A stretch of DNA of 64,000 nucleotides from a virus. Lineage: Duplodnaviria > Caudoviricetes. The DNA is taken from IMG/VR virus record IMGVR_UViG_3300032007_001727; one strand, written 5' to 3'. The notes under the pieces are model-generated. The model ran no database searches, was not told the DNA's origin, and was given only the letters and a program-made list of their open reading frames with translations. A program made the position numbers and the translations under genes. Shown here in pieces: positions 28,742 through 59,588 of this stretch. Every line of letters starts with the position of its first letter. Position 1 is the stretch's first letter.

Positions 28742-30016
28742 ATGCAAAATTCCATAAATACTGTAATGCGAAACAAAGGTGTACGTTTAAATGAAGAAGA
28801 AGCCTTAAGAAACATTAAAGACAAATGTAATGAGAGGGGTGTTGAGTTCATTGGTTTTGACAATGAAACAAATTCCTATATAAATAATAAGACATATTTG
28901 ATTTTAAGATGTAATAAATGTAATAAGATTTGGAAAACAACGACATATGATAAATTTGTAAGGTATAATAGGTCTTGTCCTAATTGTTCTAGAACAAAAA
29001 AAGTGACACTTGATGAATTAATTTCAAACACACTTGAATTATGTGAAGAAAAAGAATTTACATTCTTGGGTATAAGTGGTCCCTTTAAAGGCGTGAGAAC
29101 TAAATTGAAATTAAAATGCAATAGATGTGGTTATGAATGGCATACGACAACATACGTAAATCTAATAAAAAAGGACAGAAAAAGTCATTCGTGCAATAAA
29201 AGAAACCCATTGTATTCAACTGTAGGATTAAGAAGTGATAAAGCAACCAAAAGAGTTTTGGACTCATTAAAAGAAACTTCCCTTGAATTTGTATCCTTTA
29301 AAGATGGTGAATATATTGGATTCAATAAAACTAAAGTAATTCTAAAATGTAAAAAATGTAATAAGTTGAATGAATATTCTTTTTCTTATATCTGTAGTCA
29401 TAATATTTCTTGTAAATATTGCGAATATAATGGGAAGATTTCAAATGAGGCCGCAATTAAGATAATTGAAGACAAGTGCAAGGATTTAAATTATACTTTT
29501 TTAGGGTTTAAGACAATTGACGGAAGATATGATGGAAAGGATACTTATTTAATTTTAAAATGTAATAAATGTGGTAGAATTACTGATAGTACGAAGTTTT
29601 ATGTATTTGTCAATAGGGGGATAAAGTGCTTAAACTGTTCTAGGACTTGGAAAATGGAAGATGAAATTAAAACATTCCTTGATAAGGAAAAAATTGATTA
29701 TATTTATGACTGTAGGTCTAGGGTACTTCCTTGGCTTAAAAATAGAATATCATTGTCATTGGATTTTTATCTCCCAAAATATAATACTGCCATAGAATGT
29801 CAAGGCATTCAGCACTTCGAACCTAGTTCTTTTTATGGTGGTGAAAAGGAATTTGTCAAAACTTGTGATAGGGACAAGAGAAAACTCCTCCTATGCAAGG
29901 AAAACAATGTAACATTGCTCTATTACGACAGTGAGACACAACATCAATCCTTCTTGGGGGAAGTGGTTTTCAAGGATGTAAATAATTTATTTAAAGAAAT
30001 ATTAAAAAATGGATAA
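28742..30016 (+). CDS. free-standing homing endonuclease (CxxC repeats + Vsr/DUF559-like nuclease)
   Basis: Repeated LxCNKC modules; SLDFYLPKYNTAIECQGIQHF...DKRKLLLC. Confidence 0.75.
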   Translation: MQNSINTVMRNKGVRLNEEEALRNIKDKCNERGVEFIGFDNETNSYINNKTYLILRCNKCNKIWKTTTYDKFVRYNRSCPNCSRTKKVTLDELISNTLELCEEKEFTFLGISGPFKGVRTKLKLKCNRCGYEWHTTTYVNLIKKDRKSHSCNKRNPLYSTVGLRSDKATKRVLDSLKETSLEFVSFKDGEYIGFNKTKVILKCKKCNKLNEYSFSYICSHNISCKYCEYNGKISNEAAIKIIEDKCKDLNYTFLGFKTIDGRYDGKDTYLILKCNKCGRITDSTKFYVFVNRGIKCLNCSRTWKMEDEIKTFLDKEKIDYIYDCRSRVLPWLKNRISLSLDFYLPKYNTAIECQGIQHFEPSSFYGGEKEFVKTCDRDKRKLLLCKENNVTLLYYDSETQHQSFLGEVVFKDVNNLFKEILKNG

Positions 30017-31940: not shown

Positions 31941-32684
31941 TTACCTTACATTTTTATTCCTTATGAAATTATTTTCGTCGAAGTCGACATCATTTATGTC
32001 GAAATCATTATCCTCGTAACCATTGTCAGTAACTTGCCTCTCATCATTGTTTAATTGGTCCAAAGCCTTTTCATACTCATCCCAATAGTTATCCTCTTTT
32101 TCGGAATCCTTTTCAAGGTTCCTTGCAAACTCCTTGTATTTCTTACTATTAGGTTGAGAAGTGAACACGTTCTTCTTCCATTGTTGGTCCGCCCTAACCG
32201 GAACCGGCCCGTGAACGTTCTTTGTTGACATTTTAGGTGCCGGACCACCGACGTTCCTTACCCTTTCAAGCGGTGTTTCAAAGTCATCGAACTTGACGTT
32301 GTCGTAGAAATCTAGCATGGTCTTGTCACCGGTTCTGTTATATTCACCATAGGAAGACGGCGGAGTAGTATTGAACTTTTTATTCTTCATCGGTCTCCAA
32401 GACTTCACTCTGTCAAGGCGGAAGAATTTCCAGTTGGGAGCACCCCTCCTAGAGTTTCCGTTAAGTTGGAATGCTCTGAGAACCGGGTTGCCCTTCTTGG
32501 TCGTACCGACGGCAAAGGGCTGAATTATTCTGTTTCCCTTTGAATTTCCGCCGTTGTCTTCCTTACCGTCATCGTATTTTATATTGACGTGGTACTTGTC
32601 ATGGATACCGTCTAATACACTGTCCAAGTCAACCGCTTCGGTCAGAAGTCCGTTTATTATGTTATTAAGCGTTAGGCTAATCAT
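31941..32684 (-). CDS. WYL-like domain protein with N-terminal LLTE leader
   Basis: VNIKYD...RIIQPFAVG....NPVLRAFQ....WKFFRLDRVKSW. Confidence 0.65.
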   Translation of the reverse strand: MISLTLNNIINGLLTEAVDLDSVLDGIHDKYHVNIKYDDGKEDNGGNSKGNRIIQPFAVGTTKKGNPVLRAFQLNGNSRRGAPNWKFFRLDRVKSWRPMKNKKFNTTPPSSYGEYNRTGDKTMLDFYDNVKFDDFETPLERVRNVGGPAPKMSTKNVHGPVPVRADQQWKKNVFTSQPNSKKYKEFARNLEKDSEKEDNYWDEYEKALDQLNNDERQVTDNGYEDNDFDINDVDFDENNFIRNKNVR

Positions 32685-33799
32685 TTTTCAACAATGTAAT
32701 GAATTAAGTTTAGTTCGTTCTTGAAGGTTACTCCCTCCTCGTTTATTTCCTTGTAGTCCGTGAAATATATTAATCGGACATTGTTTTCAGCACACAATCT
32801 TGCTTTTCTCTCGTCCCTTTCTTTCTGTCTCTCAAAGTTTTCATTGAGCACTTCCTCTCTGTTGTCACCGTTGAAACTGCAAGGTTCATAGTGTTGTTCG
32901 CCTTGGCACTCAATTGCAACGTTATATTCCGGAAGATAGAAATCCAAGTGTTGGAGTCCGAGCCAAGGTGCTCTGAATGACTGTTTGAATTCAATCTCGT
33001 TTTTGTTGAGCAAGTTTGCAATTTGTTCCTCAAGGTGGCTTTGGTTACATTTTGGACATCCGTGACCATTTAAATGGTCATTTGGTCTTATCTTAAAAAT
33101 GCCATGCTTCATACACATAACATCCACTTTAGTTTTGGAATTAATATATTTTACATTATCGTATGAGTATTTGTCTTTGTGTATAGCAGAGGCTTTTTTA
33201 ATAAATTTTTCAACATTATCCCATCTATCATTTTTGGAACACTCTAAACAACCGTACCCTTTTAGATGACTATTTGGTGTTTGTTCAAATTCACCATGTA
33301 TCGGACAAGTAATTTTTATTTTTGTTTTACTATCTATATAATCAACATTGGAGTAGTCGTATTTGTCACCGTGGATTTCAACCGCCTTTTTAATAAAAGA
33401 CTCTGTTGTTAAGTGTTCCCTTTTACCGCATTTAGGACACCCACAGCCACTCAAATGCGATGTTGGTGTTTGTTCAAATTCACCATGTATCGGGCAAATT
33501 ATTTTACATAGAGTTCTGCTATTGATATAATTTGTATAAGTATATTTATCATTATGTATAATTGAGGCTTTGTTAACAAATTCGCCAAAATTACTCCTTA
33601 ATTTTTCATATGAACATTCTTTACAACCAATACCATTTAATAAATGTTTTGGTGTTTGAAAAAAGTCACCATGTTTTTTACAGTGTACTTTAACTTTAGT
33701 CGTTTTATTTATATACTCTATATCAGAGAAATCAAATTCCCCATTATATATAGTATCTAACTCTTTAATAACTTCCTCTTTTGATAAATGTTTACCCAT
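32681..33799 (-). CDS. free-standing homing endonuclease (C..HG.F.Q.P..HL.G.GC..C repeats + Vsr/DUF559-like nuclease)
   Basis: Four repeats; HLDFYLPEYNVAIECQGEQHY. Confidence 0.8.
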   Translation of the reverse strand: MGKHLSKEEVIKELDTIYNGEFDFSDIEYINKTTKVKVHCKKHGDFFQTPKHLLNGIGCKECSYEKLRSNFGEFVNKASIIHNDKYTYTNYINSRTLCKIICPIHGEFEQTPTSHLSGCGCPKCGKREHLTTESFIKKAVEIHGDKYDYSNVDYIDSKTKIKITCPIHGEFEQTPNSHLKGYGCLECSKNDRWDNVEKFIKKASAIHKDKYSYDNVKYINSKTKVDVMCMKHGIFKIRPNDHLNGHGCPKCNQSHLEEQIANLLNKNEIEFKQSFRAPWLGLQHLDFYLPEYNVAIECQGEQHYEPCSFNGDNREEVLNENFERQKERDERKARLCAENNVRLIYFTDYKEINEEGVTFKNELNLIHYIVEK

Positions 33800-41374: not shown

Positions 41375-41482
41375 CAACAATTTTATATTATTTATAATTA
41401 TTTCTATACTTAAATATAAGTATAATTGAATAAAATTCAATATTTATTATTAAAATAATAAATAAAATATTTGAATCAAATT

Positions 41483-43825
41483 ATGTCTAAAGGTTTATAT
41501 TACTACAAACTTGTGAGTGAATATCCTGATGATATCACCAAGAACTGTAAGTTAACTATTAATGAGATTGATTCTAACTTCAAATCTCTTAAAGATGAAG
41601 ATATTAAGAGTGCGGAGTTTGATAGGGACACTAAGTCGTTGATTCTTACCAAGAATGACGGTGAGAGACTTATTGTTGTCTTAAATGACATTGCCTATAA
41701 TCTTAATGTTGACACAGAGTGCGGTGAAAGCGGAATCACTCTTAGCATAGCCTACGATGGTGAGTACGGCGAAAAGGAATTTAAGATTACCAATATTGTT
41801 ACGGCTGACAAACTTATGGACCTCATCGGTGAAAACATCATGACAAGGGTTATCACCGACGGAACTTTAAAGGGTGACGGTACAATGGCGCATCCTCTTG
41901 GTATCAACGGTACCGAGAAGACCGGCATGTATGCTCCGGTCAAGGCAAAGATTGACTTGACTAGCGGCGGCAAGTTACCTTCTGTTGCAAAGTTGGGTAC
42001 TAGGTATGTAACCGTGGAATATGTTAATGACTACGGTTATCTGTATAACGGTAACGGCTTAAGGAAAATCCAACACAATCTCGCAGAGGAAGGAAAGGGT
42101 TGGCGTGTTCCTAGCAAGGCAGATTGGGACGCTTTATTGGATTCAATCGAACCTTGCAGAGAATTTAGGAACCACACTAGCGCAAAGTGTCACGTTGAGT
42201 TGGGTAAGTTGGCCGGAAAGTATCTCAAGTCTGAGTGCGGATGGTTAGGTCAAGAAGAGTGCACTTGTGCACCGACGGCACCTACGACGGGTTGCTCGTT
42301 CCCCGATACGACGGATTGTGGAACAACTGATGACTACATCAATGACCCTACATCCGAATATCCAACGGACAAGCCAATATCACCTAGTGGCGTTGACAAG
42401 TTCGGCATGACCGTCCTTCCAAGCGGTATGGTCGGTTTGGATGCCTATGGAAGACCACAAGCAGATGCCTTCAAGTCTCAGTCCTTCTTTTGGACCACAA
42501 CCCATGTTCACGGAGACGTTGACCAAGACAAGTATATTAAGGTCTTCTCCTTCAAGAAGAGCGGTGTGGTACAAGAGGCACAATGTCCGGAACCATTCTA
42601 TAGTGTAAGGTTGGTAAAGGATTATGACGGTTGCAACTATTTCGACACCGAGTATGTTGACGGAGTACCTTATAAGACGATATTGTTCCCGGAGACTAGG
42701 CAGATTTGGCTTGCTAGCAACTATGCCAAGAAGGAAGGCTTCATAATGGCAGACGGTTCTAGTGAGGATGCTGAGGTTGCAGAGGTTAATAACGGCGAGG
42801 TAATGGGCAACAGAAAGGCTCTGTTCTTGAATGAATGGAACGGTCACTATTGGGAAAAGAAGCAGATGAACGAAGGTGACACCGTAGTTGTCCAAGACCC
42901 TTGTGGCGAAACGGAGACTAGGGAGATTACCTATTGTTGGAAGACAAAATTCAATACCACCGAAAGCGGTGACACGGATTTCCCGGTTGATGACACGGAA
43001 CCACTTAACGATACGGAGTGTGAGACAATCACGATTGAGCGTGAGGCACAGCACAACGTGGAATATAGGGTTTATACCGAGGACGGGTGTAACCAAGACT
43101 TGTACAACACCGATGACTTGGTAATCGAGAGGATATTGAGGCTCATCCTTCCTATTATCATAAAGGAAAAGGAGGAGAGAATATCCGCAGATACCGAGAT
43201 ATGGGAGGCAATCGAGCAAGAGATACACGACAGAGAGAGTGCCGATGAAGAGTTGAGGGAAGCAATCGAGGCTGAAGCAGAGGCTAGGGAAAATGCCGAC
43301 AATGAGTTGAGGGACGAAATCAATGCCGAGGCAGAGACTAGGGCAGCAGAAGACAATAGGCTAGAGAGAATGATTGAAGATGTGTCCGGTGCTACCGAAG
43401 ACTTATGGGAGGCTTTGAACCATGAAATCGATAGGGCAATCAGTGCAGAAACGGCATTAGGTGTTCAGATTGACCGTGAGACTGAAAGGGCAATAATGGC
43501 CGAGACTGCTCTCGACGAGAAGATTGACGCAGAGACCGCTAGGGCAACAAACGCCGAGGAGGCACTTGATGACAAGATTGATGACGAGATTGAGCGAGCA
43601 AAAGAAAGAGAAGATGAAATCGACCTCAAGGTTGACGAAGAAATTGTTAGGGCAACCGAAAGAGAAGATGAAATCGAAGGCAAGTTAATCGACCCGTCAA
43701 AGAACCCATACACTTTAACCGCAGTTTCAGAAAGGGACGGCTTCAACCTAGTTCTTGAATCTAGGGATGGTAATGAGGAAAATTACATCAAGATTAAGTT
43801 TGATGGTAATTTTGGTGTAATTTAA
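41483..43825 (+). CDS. virion protein with Fib_succ_major (FISUMP)-like domain and coiled-coil repeats
   Basis: YGYLYNG, GWRVPSKADWDAL, AGKYLKS..GW, DKFGMTVLPSG, FFWTTT, YSVRLVKD. Confidence 0.75.
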   Translation: MSKGLYYYKLVSEYPDDITKNCKLTINEIDSNFKSLKDEDIKSAEFDRDTKSLILTKNDGERLIVVLNDIAYNLNVDTECGESGITLSIAYDGEYGEKEFKITNIVTADKLMDLIGENIMTRVITDGTLKGDGTMAHPLGINGTEKTGMYAPVKAKIDLTSGGKLPSVAKLGTRYVTVEYVNDYGYLYNGNGLRKIQHNLAEEGKGWRVPSKADWDALLDSIEPCREFRNHTSAKCHVELGKLAGKYLKSECGWLGQEECTCAPTAPTTGCSFPDTTDCGTTDDYINDPTSEYPTDKPISPSGVDKFGMTVLPSGMVGLDAYGRPQADAFKSQSFFWTTTHVHGDVDQDKYIKVFSFKKSGVVQEAQCPEPFYSVRLVKDYDGCNYFDTEYVDGVPYKTILFPETRQIWLASNYAKKEGFIMADGSSEDAEVAEVNNGEVMGNRKALFLNEWNGHYWEKKQMNEGDTVVVQDPCGETETREITYCWKTKFNTTESGDTDFPVDDTEPLNDTECETITIEREAQHNVEYRVYTEDGCNQDLYNTDDLVIERILRLILPIIIKEKEERISADTEIWEAIEQEIHDRESADEELREAIEAEAEARENADNELRDEINAEAETRAAEDNRLERMIEDVSGATEDLWEALNHEIDRAISAETALGVQIDRETERAIMAETALDEKIDAETARATNAEEALDDKIDDEIERAKEREDEIDLKVDEEIVRATEREDEIEGKLIDPSKNPYTLTAVSERDGFNLVLESRDGNEENYIKIKFDGNFGVI

Positions 43826-49206: not shown

Positions 49207-50334
49207 ATGTTAAAAGCCTACAAATATAAGATAAAACCAAACCAACAGCAAGAGGAACTTTTGTCAAAGTTCTTCGGTTGTGTGCGCTATATCTATAATT
49301 GGGGCTTAAATGCAAAAACAAGTGCTTACAAGGAAAATGGTAAGGCAATCAACTATCTGCAACTTGCAAAGGAATTAACATCATTAAAGCAACAACAAGA
49401 CCATGAATGGCTCAATGAATGTACAACAGAGGCATTGCAACAGTCGCTCAGAAGTCTTGACAATGCTTTCACAGCATTTTTCCGAAAGAAAGCAAAGTAC
49501 CCAAGATTCAAGTCAAAGAAACGCACAAAGAACTCTGTGAAGTTCATAAAATCAGTACATTTTGACTTTGAGAATTGGAAGGTTAAACTGCCAAAGTTGG
49601 GATGGATTAAGTTGTGCAAGAACAAGACATTTAACCAAAGCATTTGCAAACAAGGCACTTGTACCGTATCAAGAGACCATTGCGGAACATATTGGTGCGT
49701 AATAACGGTTGATGATTTGCAGCCAAAACCAACGAAAGCCAAGTTGGTTAAGGATAATGCAATTGGAATCGACCTTGGCATCAAGGACTACGCAATACTA
49801 TCAGATGGAACAAAGTTCGCCAACCCAAAGCATCTTGAACAAGCGCAGAGGAATCTTGCTCACTTGCAGAGGGTATTTGCAAGAAAGGGCAAGGATTCCA
49901 AGAATCACGAAAGCATGAGAGTAAAGGTTGCAAAGTGCTACAGAAGCATCACCAATCGAAGGAATGACTTTTTGCATAAGTTATCAACTTATCTTGTAAG
50001 AAACTACGATGTAATTTGCCTTGAAGATTTGAATGTAAAGGGGATGGAACAGAACCATCACCTTGCAAGGGCAATCCAAGATGCGGCTTGGGGTGAGTTT
50101 GTTAGACAACTTGAGTACAAGTCTGAATGGTATGGTAAAAACATACTATTTATAGGTAGGTTTGAGCCAAGCAGCAAGTTATGTCACAAGTGCGGTTACA
50201 TCAACCAAGAGTTGAAACTATCAGATAGAGAGTGGATATGCCCACAATGTGGTGAACATCTTGACAGAGACGTTAACGCTGCGATGAACATCAAGGAGAT
50301 TGCTTTTGATAAGCAGAACCTTGTCGGAGTTTAA
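49207..50334 (+). CDS. tnpB: IS200/IS605-family RNA-guided endonuclease TnpB, catalytic residues intact
   Basis: KAYKYKIKP..Q...FGCVRYIYN; RuvC GIDLGIK, CLEDLNVKGM, DRDVNAAMNI; CHKC/CPQC zinc finger. Confidence 0.93.
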   Translation: MLKAYKYKIKPNQQQEELLSKFFGCVRYIYNWGLNAKTSAYKENGKAINYLQLAKELTSLKQQQDHEWLNECTTEALQQSLRSLDNAFTAFFRKKAKYPRFKSKKRTKNSVKFIKSVHFDFENWKVKLPKLGWIKLCKNKTFNQSICKQGTCTVSRDHCGTYWCVITVDDLQPKPTKAKLVKDNAIGIDLGIKDYAILSDGTKFANPKHLEQAQRNLAHLQRVFARKGKDSKNHESMRVKVAKCYRSITNRRNDFLHKLSTYLVRNYDVICLEDLNVKGMEQNHHLARAIQDAAWGEFVRQLEYKSEWYGKNILFIGRFEPSSKLCHKCGYINQELKLSDREWICPQCGEHLDRDVNAAMNIKEIAFDKQNLVGV

Positions 50335-51873: not shown

Positions 51874-52251
51874 TTAAAATTTAAGTTCTTTTATGGAATC
51901 CATGATGGCCATCCTTATTTTATTCTCATCCAATTCAAAATCATAGTCCTTATTATCTTTTTCACCGTTGAACATATAATAGTTTTCTTGTGGTGTGTAT
52001 TTTGTCTTTTTAAGTTTCGGTAAACTTTTCCTCATCTTAATATCTTCTTCACATCGTTTCAGTTTTTCAATATTTTGTGTTAAGGCGGTATAAACCGTTT
52101 TCTTGTATCCTCTCACGCCACCGAACGTATGTTTCTTATATCCTAGCCGCTTGGCTACGGTGTTAATCGCTTCCGGGCTAAATTCCAATCCCATGTCGGT
52201 TCTGAATTTAACCACCATATCTTGTGCCGTTAAAATATCATATTTTGCCAT
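51874..52251 (-). CDS. hypothetical protein (possible HTH) with C-terminal LDENKIR motif
   Basis: Late motif upstream. Confidence 0.55.
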   Translation of the reverse strand: MAKYDILTAQDMVVKFRTDMGLEFSPEAINTVAKRLGYKKHTFGGVRGYKKTVYTALTQNIEKLKRCEEDIKMRKSLPKLKKTKYTPQENYYMFNGEKDNKDYDFELDENKIRMAIMDSIKELKF

Positions 52252-52289
52252 AGTATTTATATCTTTTTCAATAAATATTGATAATTTAA

Positions 52290-52321
52290 CTTGTTTTTAA
52301 CATTTTTTTTATATATTTTTG
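52290..52321 (+). promoter_or_regulatory. Bacteroidota sigmaA-type promoter of polB (TTG-N20-TATTTTTG)
   Basis: Near copy of the 22792-22823 element. Confidence 0.6.
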
Positions 52322-52364
52322 CAAAAATAATTAAAATACAACTCAAATTCTTCTATTATAATAT

Positions 52365-54815
52365 ATGAAAAAAATAACGTCAGAGGTAGTGAATACGTTC
52401 TTGAACGGCCATGACCCGATGGAACATATTATATCAATAGAGTGCGGCTACGACGAGGATAAGGTAAATATCATCTATGTTAACGACAACGGTGAGAAGC
52501 GCATCAGACAAGATGACTTCAAACCGTTTATTTGGCTTAAGCACAGTGCCGCAATCAGAATGTTTAACGGTGATAGGGCCAAACTCAGAATGGCCCTAAG
52601 GCACTATGGCATATCTATCAGAAGTCTGATAACCTCCAATGAAGGTGAAGAACCCAATGAAAGACTCTTGAACGGGTACAAATACTTGTTCTACGCCACT
52701 AGGCGAATGAGTTACATGGAATTTCAGAGGTTTTTCTCCGAGGCGGGGGTACCCCTCAGTGAAAGGAACAAGAAGGACGCACCAAAGCAGCAGAACAAGG
52801 AGTTTATGATGGTCACGCCGGTTGAACAGTACATGATTCAGACCGGTCATCGACTTTTCAAGGGATACGACTCATACGACTCGCTTGTCCGTTTCATATT
52901 CGACTTGGAGACCCAAGGACTTAATCCTAGAATCCATAGGATAGAGCAGATTGGTATTCATACGAACAAGGGTTTCGACAAGATAATATCCATAGAGGGA
53001 AACTCAAAGGAAGAGTTGGACAAAGCAGAGTTGGAGGGAATAAAGGAATTTTTAAGAATATTGTCAGAAATAAAACCGGACACGGTTGTCGGCCATAACT
53101 CAGAGAATTTCGACTTTGACTTCCTAATTGTCCGGTGTGAAGAACTTGGCGTGGATTTCTCAGAACTCTCACTGTATTATTTCAGACACCCCATTTATAA
53201 GAAAAAGAAGGAGGCGGTATTGAAATTGGGAGGTGAGGTCGAGTATTATTTCCCCACAATCATATGGGGACACAACGTCTTGGACTCCCTTCATTCTGCA
53301 AGAAGGGCACAAGCCATTGACTCAAACATGAAGTCATCGAACTTGAAATACATTACGAAATATCTGAACCTAAAGAAACCGAACCGTGTATATGTCCCGG
53401 GTGATAAAATCACCTCCACTTGGGCCGTCCGAGGAAAAGAATATGCATTTAACGATGAAGACGGTGATTGGTACAAGGTAACGGACACCAAGCCGTTGAA
53501 GGACGGGTATGAGTTGGTGAGCGGAAGATACATAGTTGAAAGGTACTTGTTGGATGACCTTTGGGAGACCGACAAGGTGGAAGAACGCCTTAACGAGTCA
53601 AACTTTCTTGTCGGCAAGATGCTTCCGACAACATTCTCAAGGGCTTGCACCATGGGAACCGCAGGAATTTGGAAACTCATAATGCTTGCTTGGTGCTATG
53701 AGAACAACTTGGCAATACCGGCATCCGCTCCGAACAGAAGGTTTGTCGGTGGGTTATCCCGTCTATTGAAGACCGGCTACGTTGACCGCATAGTCAAGTT
53801 GGACTACAACTCACTCTATCCTTCCGTAATCTTGACTTGGAATATCTCCACCCCCATTGACGTAATGAACGTCATGCTGTCTTTCTTGGAATATATCTTG
53901 ACACAACGCGAGAAATACAAGGAACTTAAGGCAGAGGCCGGAGAAAAGGCAGACGAACTCAATGACATTCTCTCAAATACCGTAAGCGAGGAAGAGATTA
54001 TAAGACTAAAGGAAGAGATTTCCCATTGGAAAGCAGAAAAAAGCGGCAATGATAAAAAACAATTACCCCTCAAGATACTAGCGAATTCATTTTTCGGAGG
54101 CTACGGTTCTCCTAGTGTTTTCCCGTTCGGGGACATAGTTGCGGCAGAGAAGACAACTTGTGTCAGCAGAATGGCCTTAAGGCTGATGATTTCACACTTC
54201 AAGTCCATAGGGTATGAGCCTATAGTGGGTGACTCATTCACAAGTGACACACCTCTCTTCGTAAAATATGACAGCACGGACGAAATAGACATAAAGCCGA
54301 TTTCGGAACTGTTCGAGAGGACGGAGACAGACGCTCTAGGAAGGGAGTACGACACCTCTAGAAAGGATTATTCCGTACTTTGCAGAAGCGGTTGGGTTCA
54401 CCCCAACTATCTATACCGCCATAAGACAGACAAGCCCTTGTACACGGTTTCAGAGGGTGACATGGAGATAACGGTCACGGAGGACCACAGCCTCTTCAAT
54501 GGCGAAGGTAAGGAGATAAAGCCAAGCGAGGTATGCAATGACACCATACTAGAGTATTACACCAAGGAAATCAAGTGTGCGGGCATAAAGTACGAGTGGA
54601 TGACCGAAGAAAGGGCAAGACTCTTCGGGAAAATGGTCAACGTGGGCGTGGCCGACCGTGTTGGAATGGCACTCCTCAACACCTCAGACATGGCGTGTGT
54701 TGAAGCCTTCTTGGACGAAGTAGAGAATCTAGACCGCCCAATCTCAAAGACTTGCCAAGCGGGCATACTGTATCTAAAAAACAAGGTAAAACATGGGAAA
54801 AAAGATAACGTTTAA
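52365..54815 (+). CDS. polB: DNA polymerase B N-terminal fragment (aa 1-623) fused to split intein N-half
   Basis: Exo FDLETQG, GHNSENFD, YLLDD; motif A LDYNSLYPS; motif B KILANSFFG; motif C breaks at IVGD|SFTSDTP. Confidence 0.92.
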   Translation: MKKITSEVVNTFLNGHDPMEHIISIECGYDEDKVNIIYVNDNGEKRIRQDDFKPFIWLKHSAAIRMFNGDRAKLRMALRHYGISIRSLITSNEGEEPNERLLNGYKYLFYATRRMSYMEFQRFFSEAGVPLSERNKKDAPKQQNKEFMMVTPVEQYMIQTGHRLFKGYDSYDSLVRFIFDLETQGLNPRIHRIEQIGIHTNKGFDKIISIEGNSKEELDKAELEGIKEFLRILSEIKPDTVVGHNSENFDFDFLIVRCEELGVDFSELSLYYFRHPIYKKKKEAVLKLGGEVEYYFPTIIWGHNVLDSLHSARRAQAIDSNMKSSNLKYITKYLNLKKPNRVYVPGDKITSTWAVRGKEYAFNDEDGDWYKVTDTKPLKDGYELVSGRYIVERYLLDDLWETDKVEERLNESNFLVGKMLPTTFSRACTMGTAGIWKLIMLAWCYENNLAIPASAPNRRFVGGLSRLLKTGYVDRIVKLDYNSLYPSVILTWNISTPIDVMNVMLSFLEYILTQREKYKELKAEAGEKADELNDILSNTVSEEEIIRLKEEISHWKAEKSGNDKKQLPLKILANSFFGGYGSPSVFPFGDIVAAEKTTCVSRMALRLMISHFKSIGYEPIVGDSFTSDTPLFVKYDSTDEIDIKPISELFERTETDALGREYDTSRKDYSVLCRSGWVHPNYLYRHKTDKPLYTVSEGDMEITVTEDHSLFNGEGKEIKPSEVCNDTILEYYTKEIKCAGIKYEWMTEERARLFGKMVNVGVADRVGMALLNTSDMACVEAFLDEVENLDRPISKTCQAGILYLKNKVKHGKKDNV
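54234..54815 (+). other. split intein N-half (~193 aa, Ser1)
   Basis: Block A SFTSDTPLFVK; block B TVTEDHSLF; tail resembles a decayed LAGLIDADG domain. Confidence 0.85.
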
Positions 54816-56424
54816 TGAATTTGTGGATAGGTCAAATGAAATACATAATTCAAAATACGCCTACCATGAAGACTCATATACCAATACACGTAATAAGACT
54901 AGGATAACTTGTCCAATTCACGGTGATTTCTATCAAACACCTAAGAATCATATGAATGGACAAGGTTGTCCTCAATGTGGAAAGGAAGTTGCTAGGATAT
55001 ATCATAAACATAATTATGAACCATTTATTAGGGCTGCAAAAGAAAGGTTTGGTGATGATTTTTCGTTCCCAAACATAGAAAGACAATATGTTAATAATAA
55101 AACTTATATTACGGTTAGATGCAATAAATGTGGATACGAATTCTCTAGACGGCCCAATGACTTGTTAAGTGATAAGTTTAATGAGTGTAAGAATTGCAAA
55201 CACATAGAAAAATTGGAAAATAGGAATAAATTAAAAATAAAGAAAACAAATAAAAGACATTCAGTAGGGAAAGAAGAATATATTAAGCGCTTCAGAGAAA
55301 AGTTCGGGGACAGCATTACTCCGTTTATGGACGAATACAAAAACACCCAAAGCGAAATACATTTCAAGTGCAACCAATGTGGGTACATCTTTAAGAGAAG
55401 ACCGCATAATTGCTTAGATAGTGACGGGTGTCCAAAATGTAAAAGAGTCAATAACCAAAAATATACCAATGACATTTTCATAGAGAAAGCAAGGGAAATT
55501 CATGGTGATAAATATGACTATTCAAAGGTAAATTATGTTAATAGTGATACTAAAGTGTGTGTAATTTGTCACGAAAAGGATAAATTTGGTGATGAACACG
55601 GTGAATTTTATGTTACACCGCATTCACATATTGGTAGTATGAGAAGTGGGTGTCCAAAATGCAGTGGAAAATTCAGAAAAGATACGGAATATTTCATAAA
55701 GGAGGCGAAATTGGTACATGGTGACAAGTATATATACGATGAGACCGAATATGTTTCTGCATTGAAAAATATTAAGGTTATATGTCCAACGCATGGTCCG
55801 TTTTCAATCAAACCGAATGACCATTTAAACGGTAAGGGCTGCAAGAAATGCGGGTATGAGACGGTCAGTGACAAATTAAGTATTAGTTTTGATGAGTTTA
55901 TCGAGCGGGCCACAGTAATACATAATAATAAATATGATTATTCGAAGGTAGACCTTAAAAATAGAGGCGAAAATGGCCGAATTTGCATTATTTGTCCCAT
56001 TCATGGTGAATTTTGGCAGTCATTGGGAGGTCATTTACGTGGTAATGGGTGTCCAAAATGCAAACAATCGCATTTGGAGAATGAAATTATGCGTTTCTTG
56101 GATGAAAAATCCATCAAATATGAGCCGCAGAAGCGATTTAGGTGGCTTGGAGGGCGTAAGAGTGTTGATTTTTTCCTACCGGACTATAATATTGCCATAG
56201 AATGCCAAGGAATTCAGCATTTTGAGGACACTTTCTTCGGTAAGGCTGAAGAAAAGATGAAAAATGACCTTTTAAAGAGAGAAATTTGTGAAAAAAATGG
56301 TATAAAAGTCTTGTACTACAGCAACTTAGGGATTGAGTACCCATACAGCGTCTTTGAAGACAAGGATTTGCTGCTGCAAGAGGTTTTTAAGTCTGATTTG
56401 ATTAAAATTTGTGAAGATGGATAA
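54793..56424 (+). CDS. free-standing homing endonuclease between the polB halves
   Basis: CPIHG.F...P..H..G.GC..C repeats; SVDFFLPDYNIAIECQGIQHF; overlaps both polB genes. Confidence 0.82.
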   Translation: MGKKITFNEFVDRSNEIHNSKYAYHEDSYTNTRNKTRITCPIHGDFYQTPKNHMNGQGCPQCGKEVARIYHKHNYEPFIRAAKERFGDDFSFPNIERQYVNNKTYITVRCNKCGYEFSRRPNDLLSDKFNECKNCKHIEKLENRNKLKIKKTNKRHSVGKEEYIKRFREKFGDSITPFMDEYKNTQSEIHFKCNQCGYIFKRRPHNCLDSDGCPKCKRVNNQKYTNDIFIEKAREIHGDKYDYSKVNYVNSDTKVCVICHEKDKFGDEHGEFYVTPHSHIGSMRSGCPKCSGKFRKDTEYFIKEAKLVHGDKYIYDETEYVSALKNIKVICPTHGPFSIKPNDHLNGKGCKKCGYETVSDKLSISFDEFIERATVIHNNKYDYSKVDLKNRGENGRICIICPIHGEFWQSLGGHLRGNGCPKCKQSHLENEIMRFLDEKSIKYEPQKRFRWLGGRKSVDFFLPDYNIAIECQGIQHFEDTFFGKAEEKMKNDLLKREICEKNGIKVLYYSNLGIEYPYSVFEDKDLLLQEVFKSDLIKICEDG

Positions 56425-57979
56425 GATTACTGCTAGAAATGTTGGGGCAACGGACGATTATGTGTATGACATTAGTCTTGATGGCTCCGTTGTTAATGCC
56501 CTTGGGTTGAACATCGCCTCAAACACTGACGGTTTTAACTTTCAGATGCCAAAGGATGAGGATTTCCGCTACACGGACGAGCATCCGTACGTTAGCACCG
56601 GAGAAGGGCGAAATTCTGTGAAAGGAAAGGCTTACACGAAGGTTGATGCCGACGTTGCCGAGTTCGAGGACTTGTTCCTCAACAAGTCTTATAACGGTGG
56701 CGTGAACAAAATGGGTTTGGGAATAGATGAGTATTGTGACGCTTGCATTCAATTCGCTCGAAAGAACTATGCGGATTTAATGGCGGGCACCGGAAAAACT
56801 AAAAAGGTGGGTAATACGATTAAATCTAGGAAGATGAGTGGTTATCTTGAAAAGTTTATTGATAGTGGCATTGACTTGTTGTTAAGGGGTAACGGGTATG
56901 AGTTCTTGTTGAACTATTATGACTACATTGAGAAGATATATAACTATCAGATTCCGATTAAGGATATTGCCTCAAAGGGAAACATCAAGAAAAGCATCAA
57001 GGATTACATGGATGACTGTAAGACACTTACCAAGGCAGGGTCCAAGAAGGCAAGGCAAGCGTGGTATGAGTTGGTTATAAAGGAAGGTATAAACGTGAAC
57101 GTAAGCGACACCATATATTATATAAATACCGGTACAAGGAAGGGTCACCCCGACGTTAAGCGCGTTACGCACTACTTCTATTTCTTGGACGGGGAGAAGA
57201 AGGAAATCACAAAGGAAGTGGAGAAGTTGTATAAGACTTATTATAAGGAGTGTGGAGAACACGGGGTCGTGGCAAGGAAGAACCGGTTGGACGTTGCTAG
57301 GGAGAATTTCGGCGAAGGTGCGTTTGACGAGGATGAAATCATCTTAATGTGCAAATTGGTGCCCAACGAGATTCTTGACAAGGAGGAAGACGTGCTTTGC
57401 AGCGAGTATGAGGGCCTAGAGTATAACGTTGAGAGATACATTGATATGTTCAACAAGCGCATAACCCCGCTTTTGGTGTGTTTTCATCCGGATATCCGTG
57501 GAAAGATACTCATAACCAACCCAAAGGACAAGTTATTCTTCACTGAGGAAGAGGCTAGGTTGGTATGTGGTTATCCAAATAAGGAGGGCGACCAAGATAC
57601 GTATGAGGCACTGATGACACCGGAAAGAAAAGAGGTTGAATATTGGGTCTCAATAAATGAAGAGCCTCCGTTTGTGAAGGAGTGCGGGATTGATTGGGAT
57701 TCCATCGTTTCAGAGTATCACAAGACGGTTGAGGATGAAAACAACGAATTGTTCAAGAACGAGAATGAGAAATATTTGGAGGCGTTGTCAAAGATAACCG
57801 ATGATGAAATTGAAGAATTCGAGAACGACGGAAAGATACCGCAAGAGATTTCATCGCTTGTGACGCTTGGGTCTGACATGAGGTTCCGGTTCAAGAAAAT
57901 TCCGGAGAAGACACCGTCAACCGGCGGGTTTATCTTCGATGACCTCACGAAGAATCTTGTTGAACAATTTGAAGAATAA
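56417..57979 (+). CDS. polB: split intein C-half (36 aa) fused to DNA polymerase B C-terminal fragment
   Basis: MDKITARNVGATDDYVYDISLDGSVVNALGLNIASN|TDGFNF; RKNYA, KKVG polB motifs. Confidence 0.9.
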   Translation: MDKITARNVGATDDYVYDISLDGSVVNALGLNIASNTDGFNFQMPKDEDFRYTDEHPYVSTGEGRNSVKGKAYTKVDADVAEFEDLFLNKSYNGGVNKMGLGIDEYCDACIQFARKNYADLMAGTGKTKKVGNTIKSRKMSGYLEKFIDSGIDLLLRGNGYEFLLNYYDYIEKIYNYQIPIKDIASKGNIKKSIKDYMDDCKTLTKAGSKKARQAWYELVIKEGINVNVSDTIYYINTGTRKGHPDVKRVTHYFYFLDGEKKEITKEVEKLYKTYYKECGEHGVVARKNRLDVARENFGEGAFDEDEIILMCKLVPNEILDKEEDVLCSEYEGLEYNVERYIDMFNKRITPLLVCFHPDIRGKILITNPKDKLFFTEEEARLVCGYPNKEGDQDTYEALMTPERKEVEYWVSINEEPPFVKECGIDWDSIVSEYHKTVEDENNELFKNENEKYLEALSKITDDEIEEFENDGKIPQEISSLVTLGSDMRFRFKKIPEKTPSTGGFIFDDLTKNLVEQFEE

Positions 57980-58034
57980 GGAAAAAAGAAAGGTGACTAT
58001 TTAAATTGATAGTCACCTTTTTTATTGTTAAGTA

Positions 58035-59588
58035 TTATTGTTCAACCTTTGTCCAATTATACTTACCCAAGTAATAATCACCCGTTCCCATCCAAACATC
58101 ATAGCCGCTGCTACCGGTTGGAACTGTCAGAGTACCACCGGCCTTAATATTATAAAAAGTAAAATTTTGTATTGTTGGTGCAGTTACCGCAAGTGAGGTT
58201 ATTGCCGATAAACTAGAACAACTATTGAAAGCATTCTGACCAATGCTTGTAACACCACTTGGAATGTTTATACTTGATAAACTAGAACACATATAGAAAG
58301 CATAGGTACCCATACTTGTAACACCACTTGGTATTGTTATACTTGATAAACTAGTACAACTTTGGAAAGCGCTATTACCAATGCTTGTAACACTGTCCGG
58401 AATTGTTACGCTTGTTAAACTATGACAACTAGAGAAAGCATTAGCACCAATGGTTGTAATATCATTTGGTATAACAGTTGTCTTACAACCACCAACTAAA
58501 GTGTTTGTGTTTGTTTCAATAATTGCATTGCAATTGTTTCTTGAGTCATAGGTCGTGTTTGCAGCATCAACTGTTATGCTTGTTAAATTATAACAACCAC
58601 TGAGAATACCATTACCAATACTTGTAACACCACTTGGTATTGTTATACTTGATAAACTAGAACAACTATTGAAAGCACTACCACCAATGCTTGTAACACT
58701 GTCCGGAATTGTTACGCTTGTTAAGCCGGAACAACCATTGAAAGCGTTGGTACCAATACTTGTAACACTATCCGGAATTGTTACACTTGTTAAACCGGAA
58801 CATTGATAAAATGCATAATTACCAATACTTGTGATGTTATCTCCAATTATATATTCTTTCACTTGGGTACCAAAATAAGTTTTAATACTTGCAGAATACG
58901 AATAATTCTTTGAAACAATAGAATTACTATTGATTGTAACACTTGTTAAATGATAGCAATCAAAGAAAACATTGTCACCAATGTATGTGACACCACTTCC
59001 AATGGTAAAATCTGTCATACCATCACATGCGCGAAAAGCATATTGGCTAATACCGGTAACGCTGTCCGGAATTGTCATACTTGTTAAAGCCCAACATTGA
59101 TAGAAAGCATAATTACTAACGTTTGTAACACCACTACCAAGCGTACAAGTTTTCATCTGACTACATTCACTAAAAACATAACTACCAATTCTTGTAACAC
59201 TGTCCGGGATTACTAACTCCCTTATAGCGCATCCGAGGAAAGCGTAATCACCAATCCTTGTAACGCCGTCCGGAATTGTTACACTTGTTAAACTAGTACA
59301 GGCGCTGAAAGCCCTATTGCCAATGCTTGTACAAAGTGTACCGATTTCAGCACCGACACAAGTTGATTTGTATGAACTTGTCATTGCACTTGTAAGTTCT
59401 CCACTGCCCTCAATATCAACAACTTCACCGTTCTTAAGTGTTAACTTACAGAAGAATGGGGGGGGGGGAGCAGGGTTATAATACACATCACCCTCAGCAA
59501 CGCAAAGTGATACATTTGGCTTTGGATAGTCCGTGGCAACATACGCTGTATAATCAGCATGTGTTGCAAATTCTTTAACGTACTTCAT
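58035..59588 (-). CDS. BspA-like (LRR_5) protein, in frame through a C11 tract
   Basis: Many 23-aa LTSVTIPDSVTSIG..AF..C repeats; G11 at 59458-59468. Confidence 0.9.
   Translation of the reverse strand: MKYVKEFATHADYTAYVATDYPKPNVSLCVAEGDVYYNPAPPPPFFCKLTLKNGEVVDIEGSGELTSAMTSSYKSTCVGAEIGTLCTSIGNRAFSACTSLTSVTIPDGVTRIGDYAFLGCAIRELVIPDSVTRIGSYVFSECSQMKTCTLGSGVTNVSNYAFYQCWALTSMTIPDSVTGISQYAFRACDGMTDFTIGSGVTYIGDNVFFDCYHLTSVTINSNSIVSKNYSYSASIKTYFGTQVKEYIIGDNITSIGNYAFYQCSGLTSVTIPDSVTSIGTNAFNGCSGLTSVTIPDSVTSIGGSAFNSCSSLSSITIPSGVTSIGNGILSGCYNLTSITVDAANTTYDSRNNCNAIIETNTNTLVGGCKTTVIPNDITTIGANAFSSCHSLTSVTIPDSVTSIGNSAFQSCTSLSSITIPSGVTSMGTYAFYMCSSLSSINIPSGVTSIGQNAFNSCSSLSAITSLAVTAPTIQNFTFYNIKAGGTLTVPTGSSGYDVWMGTGDYYLGKYNWTKVEQ

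Follow-up and report, generated by a model that had tools for sequence, protein, structure and literature searches.

Host genes described as fractured by Dassa, London, Stoddard, Schueler-Furman and Pietrokovski in 2009 consist of two adjacent same-strand open reading frames (ORFs) with overlapping frames, each carrying one half of a split intein, the halves being separated by a free-standing gene for a Vsr-like or GIY-YIG endonuclease; these authors proposed an evolutionary model in which a contiguous intein is invaded by an endonuclease gene, which is subsequently lost (PMC2677866). One insertion site of inteins in motif C of family B DNA polymerases (PolB), termed pol-c (YGD↓TDS in Mimivirus, YID↓TDG in archaea; the arrow marks the insertion point), is also where the split PolB of Nanoarchaeum equitans is broken (PMC549080). 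For the jumbo phage MIJ3, a PolB in two parts with an endonuclease gene lying between them was reported (Imam et al. 2019, PMC6892783). Trans-splicing was shown for naturally split inteins that have Cys-free junctions and reside in motif C of phage PolB (Aes123 PolB1 and LCGC14 PolB2; PMC11923092, PMC12707363), and PolB16 OarG, which comes from a sheep gut metagenome, has SGDTD at the end of its N-extein (PMC10189870). Here, a locus at positions 52,365 to 57,979 of a 64,000-nucleotide (nt) stretch of viral DNA (Duplodnaviria; Caudoviricetes; IMG/VR record IMGVR_UViG_3300032007_001727) is described; the whole stretch is referred to as the window. The evidence supports the reading of this locus as a fractured gene, i.e. 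a PolB gene interrupted at pol-c by a split intein, with an endonuclease gene between the intein halves.

A PolB gene divided within motif C

The locus comprises three plus-strand ORFs in three different frames (genes 1 to 3, Table 1). Pfam and PHROG matches identify gene 1 as encoding the N-terminal two thirds of a PolB. Its polymerase part ends in ...EPIVGD and is followed, from position 54234, by SFTSDTPLF (intein block A), YLYRHKTDK and ITVTEDHSLF (block B, in which TEDH represents intein residues 82-85). Gene 3 begins with M-DKITARNVGATDDYVYDISLDG...NIASN, ending at 56524; these first 36 amino acids (aa), which close with ...VYDISLDGSVVNALGLNIASN, are followed by TDGFNFQMP and the 484-aa polymerase C-terminus. 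The insertion separates the Asp from the Thr in motif C (IVGD↓TDG), in agreement with the pol-c definition Y-x-D↓T-D-(G/S), and the aspartates of this motif are distributed one to each of the two gene products.

A scan of IMG/VR with the N-extein retrieved 32 related loci (given L-numbers here), many of them on contigs of 270-412 kb. In 11 of the 32 (including L001, L007-L010, L013, L016, L025, L026 and L028), the exteins are contiguous in one frame and read ...VGD-TDGFNF..., with no insert at the exact codon boundary. Since these uninterrupted relatives read VGD-TDG at exactly the break codon, motif C is split inside, and the eleven of them show that the two genes of the window together make up one uninterrupted polymerase of 1,107 aa (623 + 484). 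The exteins of the window are full length, free of stop codons and 64-79% identical to uninterrupted relatives. The preliminary description of this DNA, made from the sequence alone, had placed the three genes and their junctions correctly, as re-reading of the ORFs confirmed; the division of motif C (GD↓TDG) between two genes, which it had claimed, and the colinearity of the joined exteins with uninterrupted PolB, which it had proposed as a check, were both borne out.

In principle, frameshifts in the assembly of an ordinary intein that contains its own endonuclease could have produced the three frames, or the endonuclease region could be removed as an RNA intron; related jumbo phages of the gut are reported to carry many small group I introns, which standard models may miss (PMC12880540). 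The preliminary description had argued that there is no room for an intron, and this holds. Gene 2 starts 23 nt upstream of the gene 1 stop (a 23-nt overlap) and overlaps gene 3 by 8 nt (ATG start at 56417) or 14 nt (GTG start at 56411); with start and stop codons overlapping, there is no room for non-coding sequence. No intron or ribozyme was found with Rfam, either in the window at gathering thresholds or in positions 52000-58300 at E up to 10, where only chance matches appeared. RNA folds at both gene junctions are no different from those of shuffled sequences, and for this reason the upstream hairpin of Dassa and colleagues is regarded as not found here. Moreover, 1,926 protein clusters of a 5.8-billion-protein collection match the intein N-half, and gene 1-like proteins of 118 of the best 120 of these are 798-848 aa long, therefore sharing the same stop position; overall, this position recurs in hundreds of independent clusters. 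The same layout occurs on independent contigs in different frame combinations, the halves in L031 are separated by only 25 nt, and those in L004 are still separate ORFs after loss of the endonuclease. An artefact or an intron is thus exceedingly improbable.

Intein identity of the two halves

Relatives of the window supply the link to inteins. Seven of them carry a contiguous, in-frame insert of 350-355 aa at the same codon, and these inserts match the Pfam models Intein_splicing (E ~1e-8, 35.7 bits against a cut-off of 35.8) and, above its cut-off, LAGLIDADG_3. The split N-halves align with the contiguous inteins over residues 1-283 of 355 (hhalign probability 99.9, E 9e-34). A profile of the family matches solved inteins, namely 9HTH (Aes123 PolB1; E 3.8e-6), the Mja TFIIB mini-intein (5O9J; E 1.5e-5), the Mvu TFIIB mini-intein (E 4.2e-5), a consensus intein and PI-PkoII. 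The search with intein hidden Markov models that the preliminary description had suggested for both halves was successful in part: the family profile reached solved inteins, and the halves of the window themselves stayed below the cut-offs, which is why the link for its N-half is supplied by the contiguous inteins and the family profile.

The residues expected of a functional intein are conserved. In the N-half, Ser1, His63, Thr82, Asp84 and His85 are invariant among 18 related sequences, while in the C-half V16, D18-G23, N36 and T37 (Thr+1) are invariant in 9 relatives. The sequence YLY-R62-H63-KTDK, in which the conserved His is preceded by Arg, corresponds to the NX motif, a signature of Ser1/Ser(Thr)+1 inteins (Pasch et al. 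2023, PMC10189870). The junction nucleophiles are free of cysteine, as had been claimed; the intein as a whole is not, given that Cys50, Cys100 and other, non-catalytic cysteines are present. An AlphaFold2 model of the N-half (predicted local distance difference test score, pLDDT, 84) shows Hint strands followed by four confident helices. For this model, Foldseek ranks only inteins at the top of the PDB matches, NeqN/NeqC and endonuclease-bearing VMA inteins among them, the best E being only 7.8e-3. For the C-half with 32 extein residues, phmmer found no match in PDB. Taken together, the family profile, the hhalign alignment and the invariant catalytic positions support the assignment of the insert as a class 1 Ser1/Thr+1 intein in split form, in line with the split intein first proposed for this locus.

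Both intein halves are under purifying selection: the ratio of nonsynonymous to synonymous substitution rates (dN/dS) is 0.04-0.24 for the core of the N-half, 0.08-0.29 for its tail and, in closely related pairs, 0-0.16 for the C-half. This selection bears on the possibility that the polymerase gene is a decaying pseudogene, ruined by a selfish insertion, and that another polymerase replicates the phage. The present reading is confined to 64 kb of the genome, and two relatives (L023 and L029) have an in-frame TAG shortly after the junction, both of which would suit such a pseudogene. Nevertheless, the intact and well-conserved exteins described above, the retention of the layout in ~1,900 clusters and the selection acting on the intein halves make it highly improbable.

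The two halves are also predicted to associate. A complex was modelled from the N-half with 10 extein residues (an alignment of 11 rows) and the C-half with 25 extein residues (9 rows), and gave an interaction prediction score from aligned errors (ipSAE) of 0.91, the best of 3 controls scoring 0.03; the mark of 0.91 is reached by 58 of 80 solved complexes and by 2 of 110 mismatched pairs. The runs share at least 83% of contacts, with a partner pLDDT of at least 66, and the predicted interface includes all C-half residues 1-37 and the N-terminal splice junction. The model supports binding of the intein halves to each other, although, because split-intein complexes are already present in PDB, its score may reflect likeness to known complexes.

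The long tail of the N-half

The N-half of 193 aa extends ~70 aa beyond those of characterised natural split inteins (~100-123 aa). In hhalign, this tail aligns to residues ~225-283 of the contiguous 355-aa LAGLIDADG inteins and comprises the start of the second LAGLIDADG half (...RVP..LLN...FL...) together with the next helix (SK..AG..FLK). Of the two LAGLIDADG halves, the first has been removed by deletion and the second has lost the catalytic G-D-G that is found in contiguous relatives; no LAGLIDADG match was obtained with Pfam on the N-half of the window. With the first half deleted and GDG gone, the old endonuclease is therefore dead. On the 355-aa contiguous relative, the break falls at residue ~283, within the second LAGLIDADG half, in the part of inteins that houses the endonuclease domain, as expected of a fractured gene. 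The tail is modelled as four helices with pLDDT 94-96 over most of its length, and residues 182-190 of chain 1, in its last helix, contact the C-half in the complex model. Judged by alignment and dN/dS, the additional ~70 aa are best read as a selected vestige of the old LAGLIDADG domain.

A tentative and rather doubtful extension of this reading is that the vestige has been exapted, being kept by selection either as a surface for folding and assembly of the long split intein or to help the free-standing nuclease find its DNA target. If this were true, the cassette would be a two-protein mobile element competing with the contiguous LAGLIDADG intein for the same polymerase codon, and would offer a natural setting where all stages of the intein/endonuclease homing cycle circulate side by side.

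The endonuclease gene between the halves

The product of gene 2 has six Cys4 zinc-ribbon repeats (Pfam DUF4379; phrog_559, E 9e-95; phrog_681) and a C-terminal domain matching phrog_9084, annotated as 'homing endonuclease' (E 4e-18). Since phmmer with the whole protein against PDB returned only chance zinc-ribbon matches, a fold search was required. The model of the last 139 aa (pLDDT 85) has as its best PDB matches in Foldseek Vsr of Escherichia coli (1cw0; E 2.7e-4, template modelling (TM) score by query 0.59) and I-Bth0305I (3r3p); with the catalytic domain of the latter, the TM score by target is 0.67-0.68 at 22-23% identity. The nuclease core ...LDF(Y/F)LP..NIAIECQG.QH... is conserved, and E25, D55, E66, G69 and K91 are invariant, with a His following in Q/W-H; these are candidates for the catalytic residues. 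Endonucleases of the relatives give weak Pfam matches to Vsr and DUF559. These findings agree with the 543-aa zinc-repeat, Vsr-like endonuclease recognised in the preliminary description.

Genes of the same family occur elsewhere. Two paralogues with 25-36% identity, both matching phrog_559 and phrog_9084, are present in the window at 28742-30016 (+) and 32681-33799 (-), and the neighbours of both are without family matches. The endonuclease at L005:10501-11790 has two zinc-ribbon repeats, a DUF559/Vsr-like core and an extra C-terminal domain of ~190 aa with weak GNAT acetyltransferase matches (E 3e-4). At L011:10412-14716, three tandem endonuclease genes of this family (475, 580 and 400 codons from stop to stop) lie between the intein halves, within an insert of 4.9 kb.

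Alleles of the site in related phages

Four states of the same codon were observed among the related jumbo-phage contigs: (i) empty, (ii) occupied by a contiguous LAGLIDADG intein, (iii) occupied by a split intein with one or more endonuclease genes, and (iv) occupied by a split intein without a working endonuclease (L004, L027 and L031). The gene 1 product was also found in the 5.8-billion-protein collection on a contig of 366,743 bp. Several comparisons indicate that these states interconvert. L004 equals L005, to which it is 96.5% identical, minus a clean deletion of 1,062 bp within the endonuclease gene, both ends of which are left as debris. The empty L008 and the occupied L006 share 93% DNA identity and differ by an indel of 2,143 bp whose ends are exactly the intein ends, with identical flanks of 24 + 24 nt. 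The states are intermingled on an extein tree, with 12 changes (minimum 3; shuffled mean 14.8). In L023, the identity to L001 and L003 drops from ~85-95% to 65-77% within 300-450 nt on either side of the site, as co-conversion would give.

Several individual loci deserve separate mention. L031:5106-8232 has no endonuclease gene between its closely spaced halves, and its N-extein has an insertion of ~110 aa that is not present in the window. Two independent relatives (L023:11466-11486 and L029:2251-2271) share a 9-nt insert (...ACC GAT GGC TAG CTA GGT TTT...), which places the in-frame TAG three codons past the C-terminal splice junction and would separate the C-half from its extein. Recoding of TAG or TGA was considered as the reason for this stop and rejected, as ORF lengths show no clear gain. 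In the more distant relative L020 (8539-8700), PolB lies in two ORFs in different frames, with the break ~20 codons before motif C, no intein and ~40 nt from stop to start; a split without an intein, a frameshift or a small intron could each account for this.

Proposed mechanism

Very probably, judging from the sequences of the window and its relatives, the locus works by trans-splicing and is propagated by homing of the whole cassette. The fractured gene would have originated when a LAGLIDADG-containing intein was broken, within its decayed endonuclease domain, by a free-standing homing endonuclease gene of the zinc-ribbon-repeat, Vsr-like type. The three overlapping genes would be co-transcribed, and the 816-aa and 520-aa products would associate via the intein halves. 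Ser1 would then form an oxyester, aided by Thr82/His85 of block B and His63 of the NX motif, and the N-extein would be transferred to the hydroxyl of Thr+1; cyclisation of the terminal Asn and an O-N shift would restore ...IVGD-TDGFNF... in the 1,107-aa polymerase. The endonuclease would be the mobility engine, and the N-half, endonuclease and C-half would move as one unit whose DNA ends are the intein ends. This cassette appears to co-circulate with the empty site, the contiguous LAGLIDADG intein and endonuclease-less derivatives.

Several points weigh against this scheme. The N-half of the window, taken alone, scores below curated cut-offs (PF14890, E 0.018; TIGR01445, E 0.005, 17.7 bits against 24.5), and its 193 aa far exceed the length of characterised split inteins, which may affect its folding. 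The penultimate residue of the intein is Ser instead of the usual His. The extein tree is a quick one with long branches, and the co-conversion signal is limited to one lineage (L023), being absent in the L008/L006 pair. Finally, we infer splicing and endonuclease cleavage from intein chemistry and from sequence.

Some of these points would also fit halves that are splicing-dead and act merely as a non-covalent clamp for two polymerase pieces, as in the intein-less split gp43 or NrdA of T4-like phages. The missing penultimate His and the sub-cut-off scores are compatible with such a clamp, L020 looks split without an intein, and intein-less two-piece phage polymerases have been described, according to citations in PMC2677866. 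However, none of the split relatives departs from Ser1, His63, Thr82, His85, the block F Asp, the terminal Asn or Thr+1, which, together with the low dN/dS, is hard to reconcile with loss of splicing; moreover, an unspliced intein would separate the two catalytic Asp of motif C. A Ser-Asn ending is not unusual either, as efficient split inteins such as Npu DnaE likewise end in Ser-Asn. Splicing-dead halves are therefore considered improbable, and trans-splicing is retained as the preferred reading.

Genomic context

The coordinates of the features are collected in Table 1. Among 50,697 phage records, no nucleotide match to the region was found. A pattern scan revealed no terminator-like site from the end of the polymerase part of gene 1 to the end of gene 3.

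Table 1. Features of the divided PolB locus (positions in the window)
Feature	Position	Strand	Length	Remarks
Gene 1	52365..54815	+	816 aa	
PolB N-extein	52365..54233	+	623 aa	Exonuclease domain, motif A DYNSLYPS, motif B KILANSFFGGYG, first half of motif C IVGD; Pfam DNA_pol_B, DNA_pol_B_exo1, RNase_H_2; phrog_262 DNA polymerase, E 8e-63; colinear with uninterrupted relatives
Intein N-half, Hint core	54234..54593	+	~120 aa	Ser1 54234-54236; His63 54420-54422; Thr82-x-x-His85 54477-54488
Intein N-half, tail	54594..54815	+	~73 aa + stop	Putative helical vestige of LAGLIDADG second half, catalytic GDG lost
Gene 2, free-standing homing endonuclease (predicted)	54793..56424	+	543 aa	Six zinc-ribbon repeats, then Vsr-like nuclease domain (~56005-56421)
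Gene 3	56411/56417..57979	+		
Intein C-half	56417..56524	+	36 aa from ATG; 38 aa from GTG 56411	Block F VYDISLDG, block G NIASN
Terminal Asn of intein C-half	56522-56524	+		
PolB C-extein	56525..57979	+	484 aa + stop	Thr+1 56525-56527; second half of motif C TDG; colinear with uninterrupted relatives, 64-78% identity
Terminator-like hairpin 3' of gene 3	57989..58020	not assigned		Pattern scan only

The source is a giant phage of the gut or rumen. Closely upstream of the polymerase locus, at 49207-50334 (+), there is an ORF of 375 aa resembling a TnpB-type transposon nuclease, with a zinc-finger C-terminus recognised by eye. A BspA-type leucine-rich repeat protein is encoded at 58035-59588 (-) (Pfam LRR_5, E 2e-124) and a Fib_succ_major-domain protein at 41471-43825 (+); the latter two hint at a host of the Bacteroidota or Fibrobacter type in the gut or rumen.

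Comparison with known systems

With regard to the insertion point and the Ser1/Thr+1 chemistry, the locus is like the pol-c inteins of archaeal PolI, Mimivirus PolB and N. equitans PolB (PMC549080). The last of these is also split at the same point, but its halves are unlinked and without an endonuclease gene, whereas those of the window are adjacent with an endonuclease gene between them. The family profile matches the archaeal pol-c intein PI-PkoII weakly (E 0.075, compared with 3.8e-6 for Aes123 PolB1 and 1.5e-5 for the Mja TFIIB intein); because of this weak similarity, common descent of the pol-c allele with the archaeal inteins is not established.

Aes123 PolB1 of T4-like Aeromonas phages and LCGC14 PolB2/CP21 PolB1 resemble the intein of the window in being split, in having Cys-free nucleophiles and in residing in motif C of phage PolB (PMC11923092, PMC12707363). 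Aes123 PolB1 (9HTH) is the best PDB sequence match to the N-half of the window, the likeness being confined to the block B region; its flanks are DTD↓SVY and its N-half has 120 aa, as opposed to GD↓TDG, 193 aa and several non-catalytic cysteines in the window. Thus, the suggestion that this may be a new Cys-free split intein overstated its novelty, given that Aes123 PolB1, LCGC14 PolB2 and PolB16 OarG have already been characterised and that the layout was published for MIJ3.

The Pseudomonas jumbo phages MIJ3, PA5oct and Cassandra likewise have a Ser1 split intein in motif C (PMC6892783; OR805292.1). In Cassandra, the order PolB-N, endonuclease, PolB-C is the same as in the window, and the endonucleases of the two are homologous (30% identity over 330 aa, E 1e-30), with zinc-ribbon repeats and a Vsr-like core in both; the region of block B and the NX motif is 38% identical over 55 residues. 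In contrast, the site of the Cassandra group is two residues downstream (YGDTD↓S), with Ser at +1 and an intein ending in His-Asn instead of Thr+1 and Ser-Asn, its N-half of ~115 aa is without a LAGLIDADG vestige, and the phage lineage is unrelated. The endonuclease of the window shares its catalytic fold with I-Bth0305I and other Vsr-like homing endonucleases, whose motifs its core D...(I/L)E..G..H resembles (PMC3239194, 3R3P); I-Bth0305I, however, is intron-encoded in recA and has another N-terminal DNA-binding region, in place of the free-standing gene and zinc-ribbon repeats seen here.

Three features set this locus apart: its insertion at pol-c in a phage, an N-half that retains a LAGLIDADG vestige under selection, and an allelic series that is complete. 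The locus adds a very abundant, naturally split Ser1/Thr+1 pol-c intein to the short list of those with Cys-free junctions and, being only distantly related to the inteins in use (Aes/CLm, LCGC14, PolB16), it may reasonably be considered as a candidate tool for orthogonal ligation. Since matching database entries are unnamed or labelled as generic polymerase, 'DNA polymerase fragments' of gut and rumen jumbo phages would be best annotated as parts of one putatively trans-spliced enzyme.

Among the described systems, the fractured genes of Dassa and colleagues (PMC2677866) are those to which the preliminary description had assigned the locus, rightly so: the host gene in two adjacent, overlapping same-strand ORFs, the split-intein halves and the free-standing, here Vsr-like, endonuclease gene between them are all present. 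The window differs from these genes in that (i) the host is PolB, at pol-c, (ii) the break lies within a retained LAGLIDADG vestige, not in a mini-intein, (iii) the DNA-binding part of the endonuclease consists of six zinc-ribbon repeats, not of NUMOD motifs, and no upstream hairpin was detected, and (iv) a single site in a single phage lineage displays every stage of their model. Alleles of four kinds (empty, contiguous, fractured and lacking the endonuclease) share this codon, some of them in genomes that are 93-96% identical, and the gene-breaking model of 2009 is therefore directly testable.

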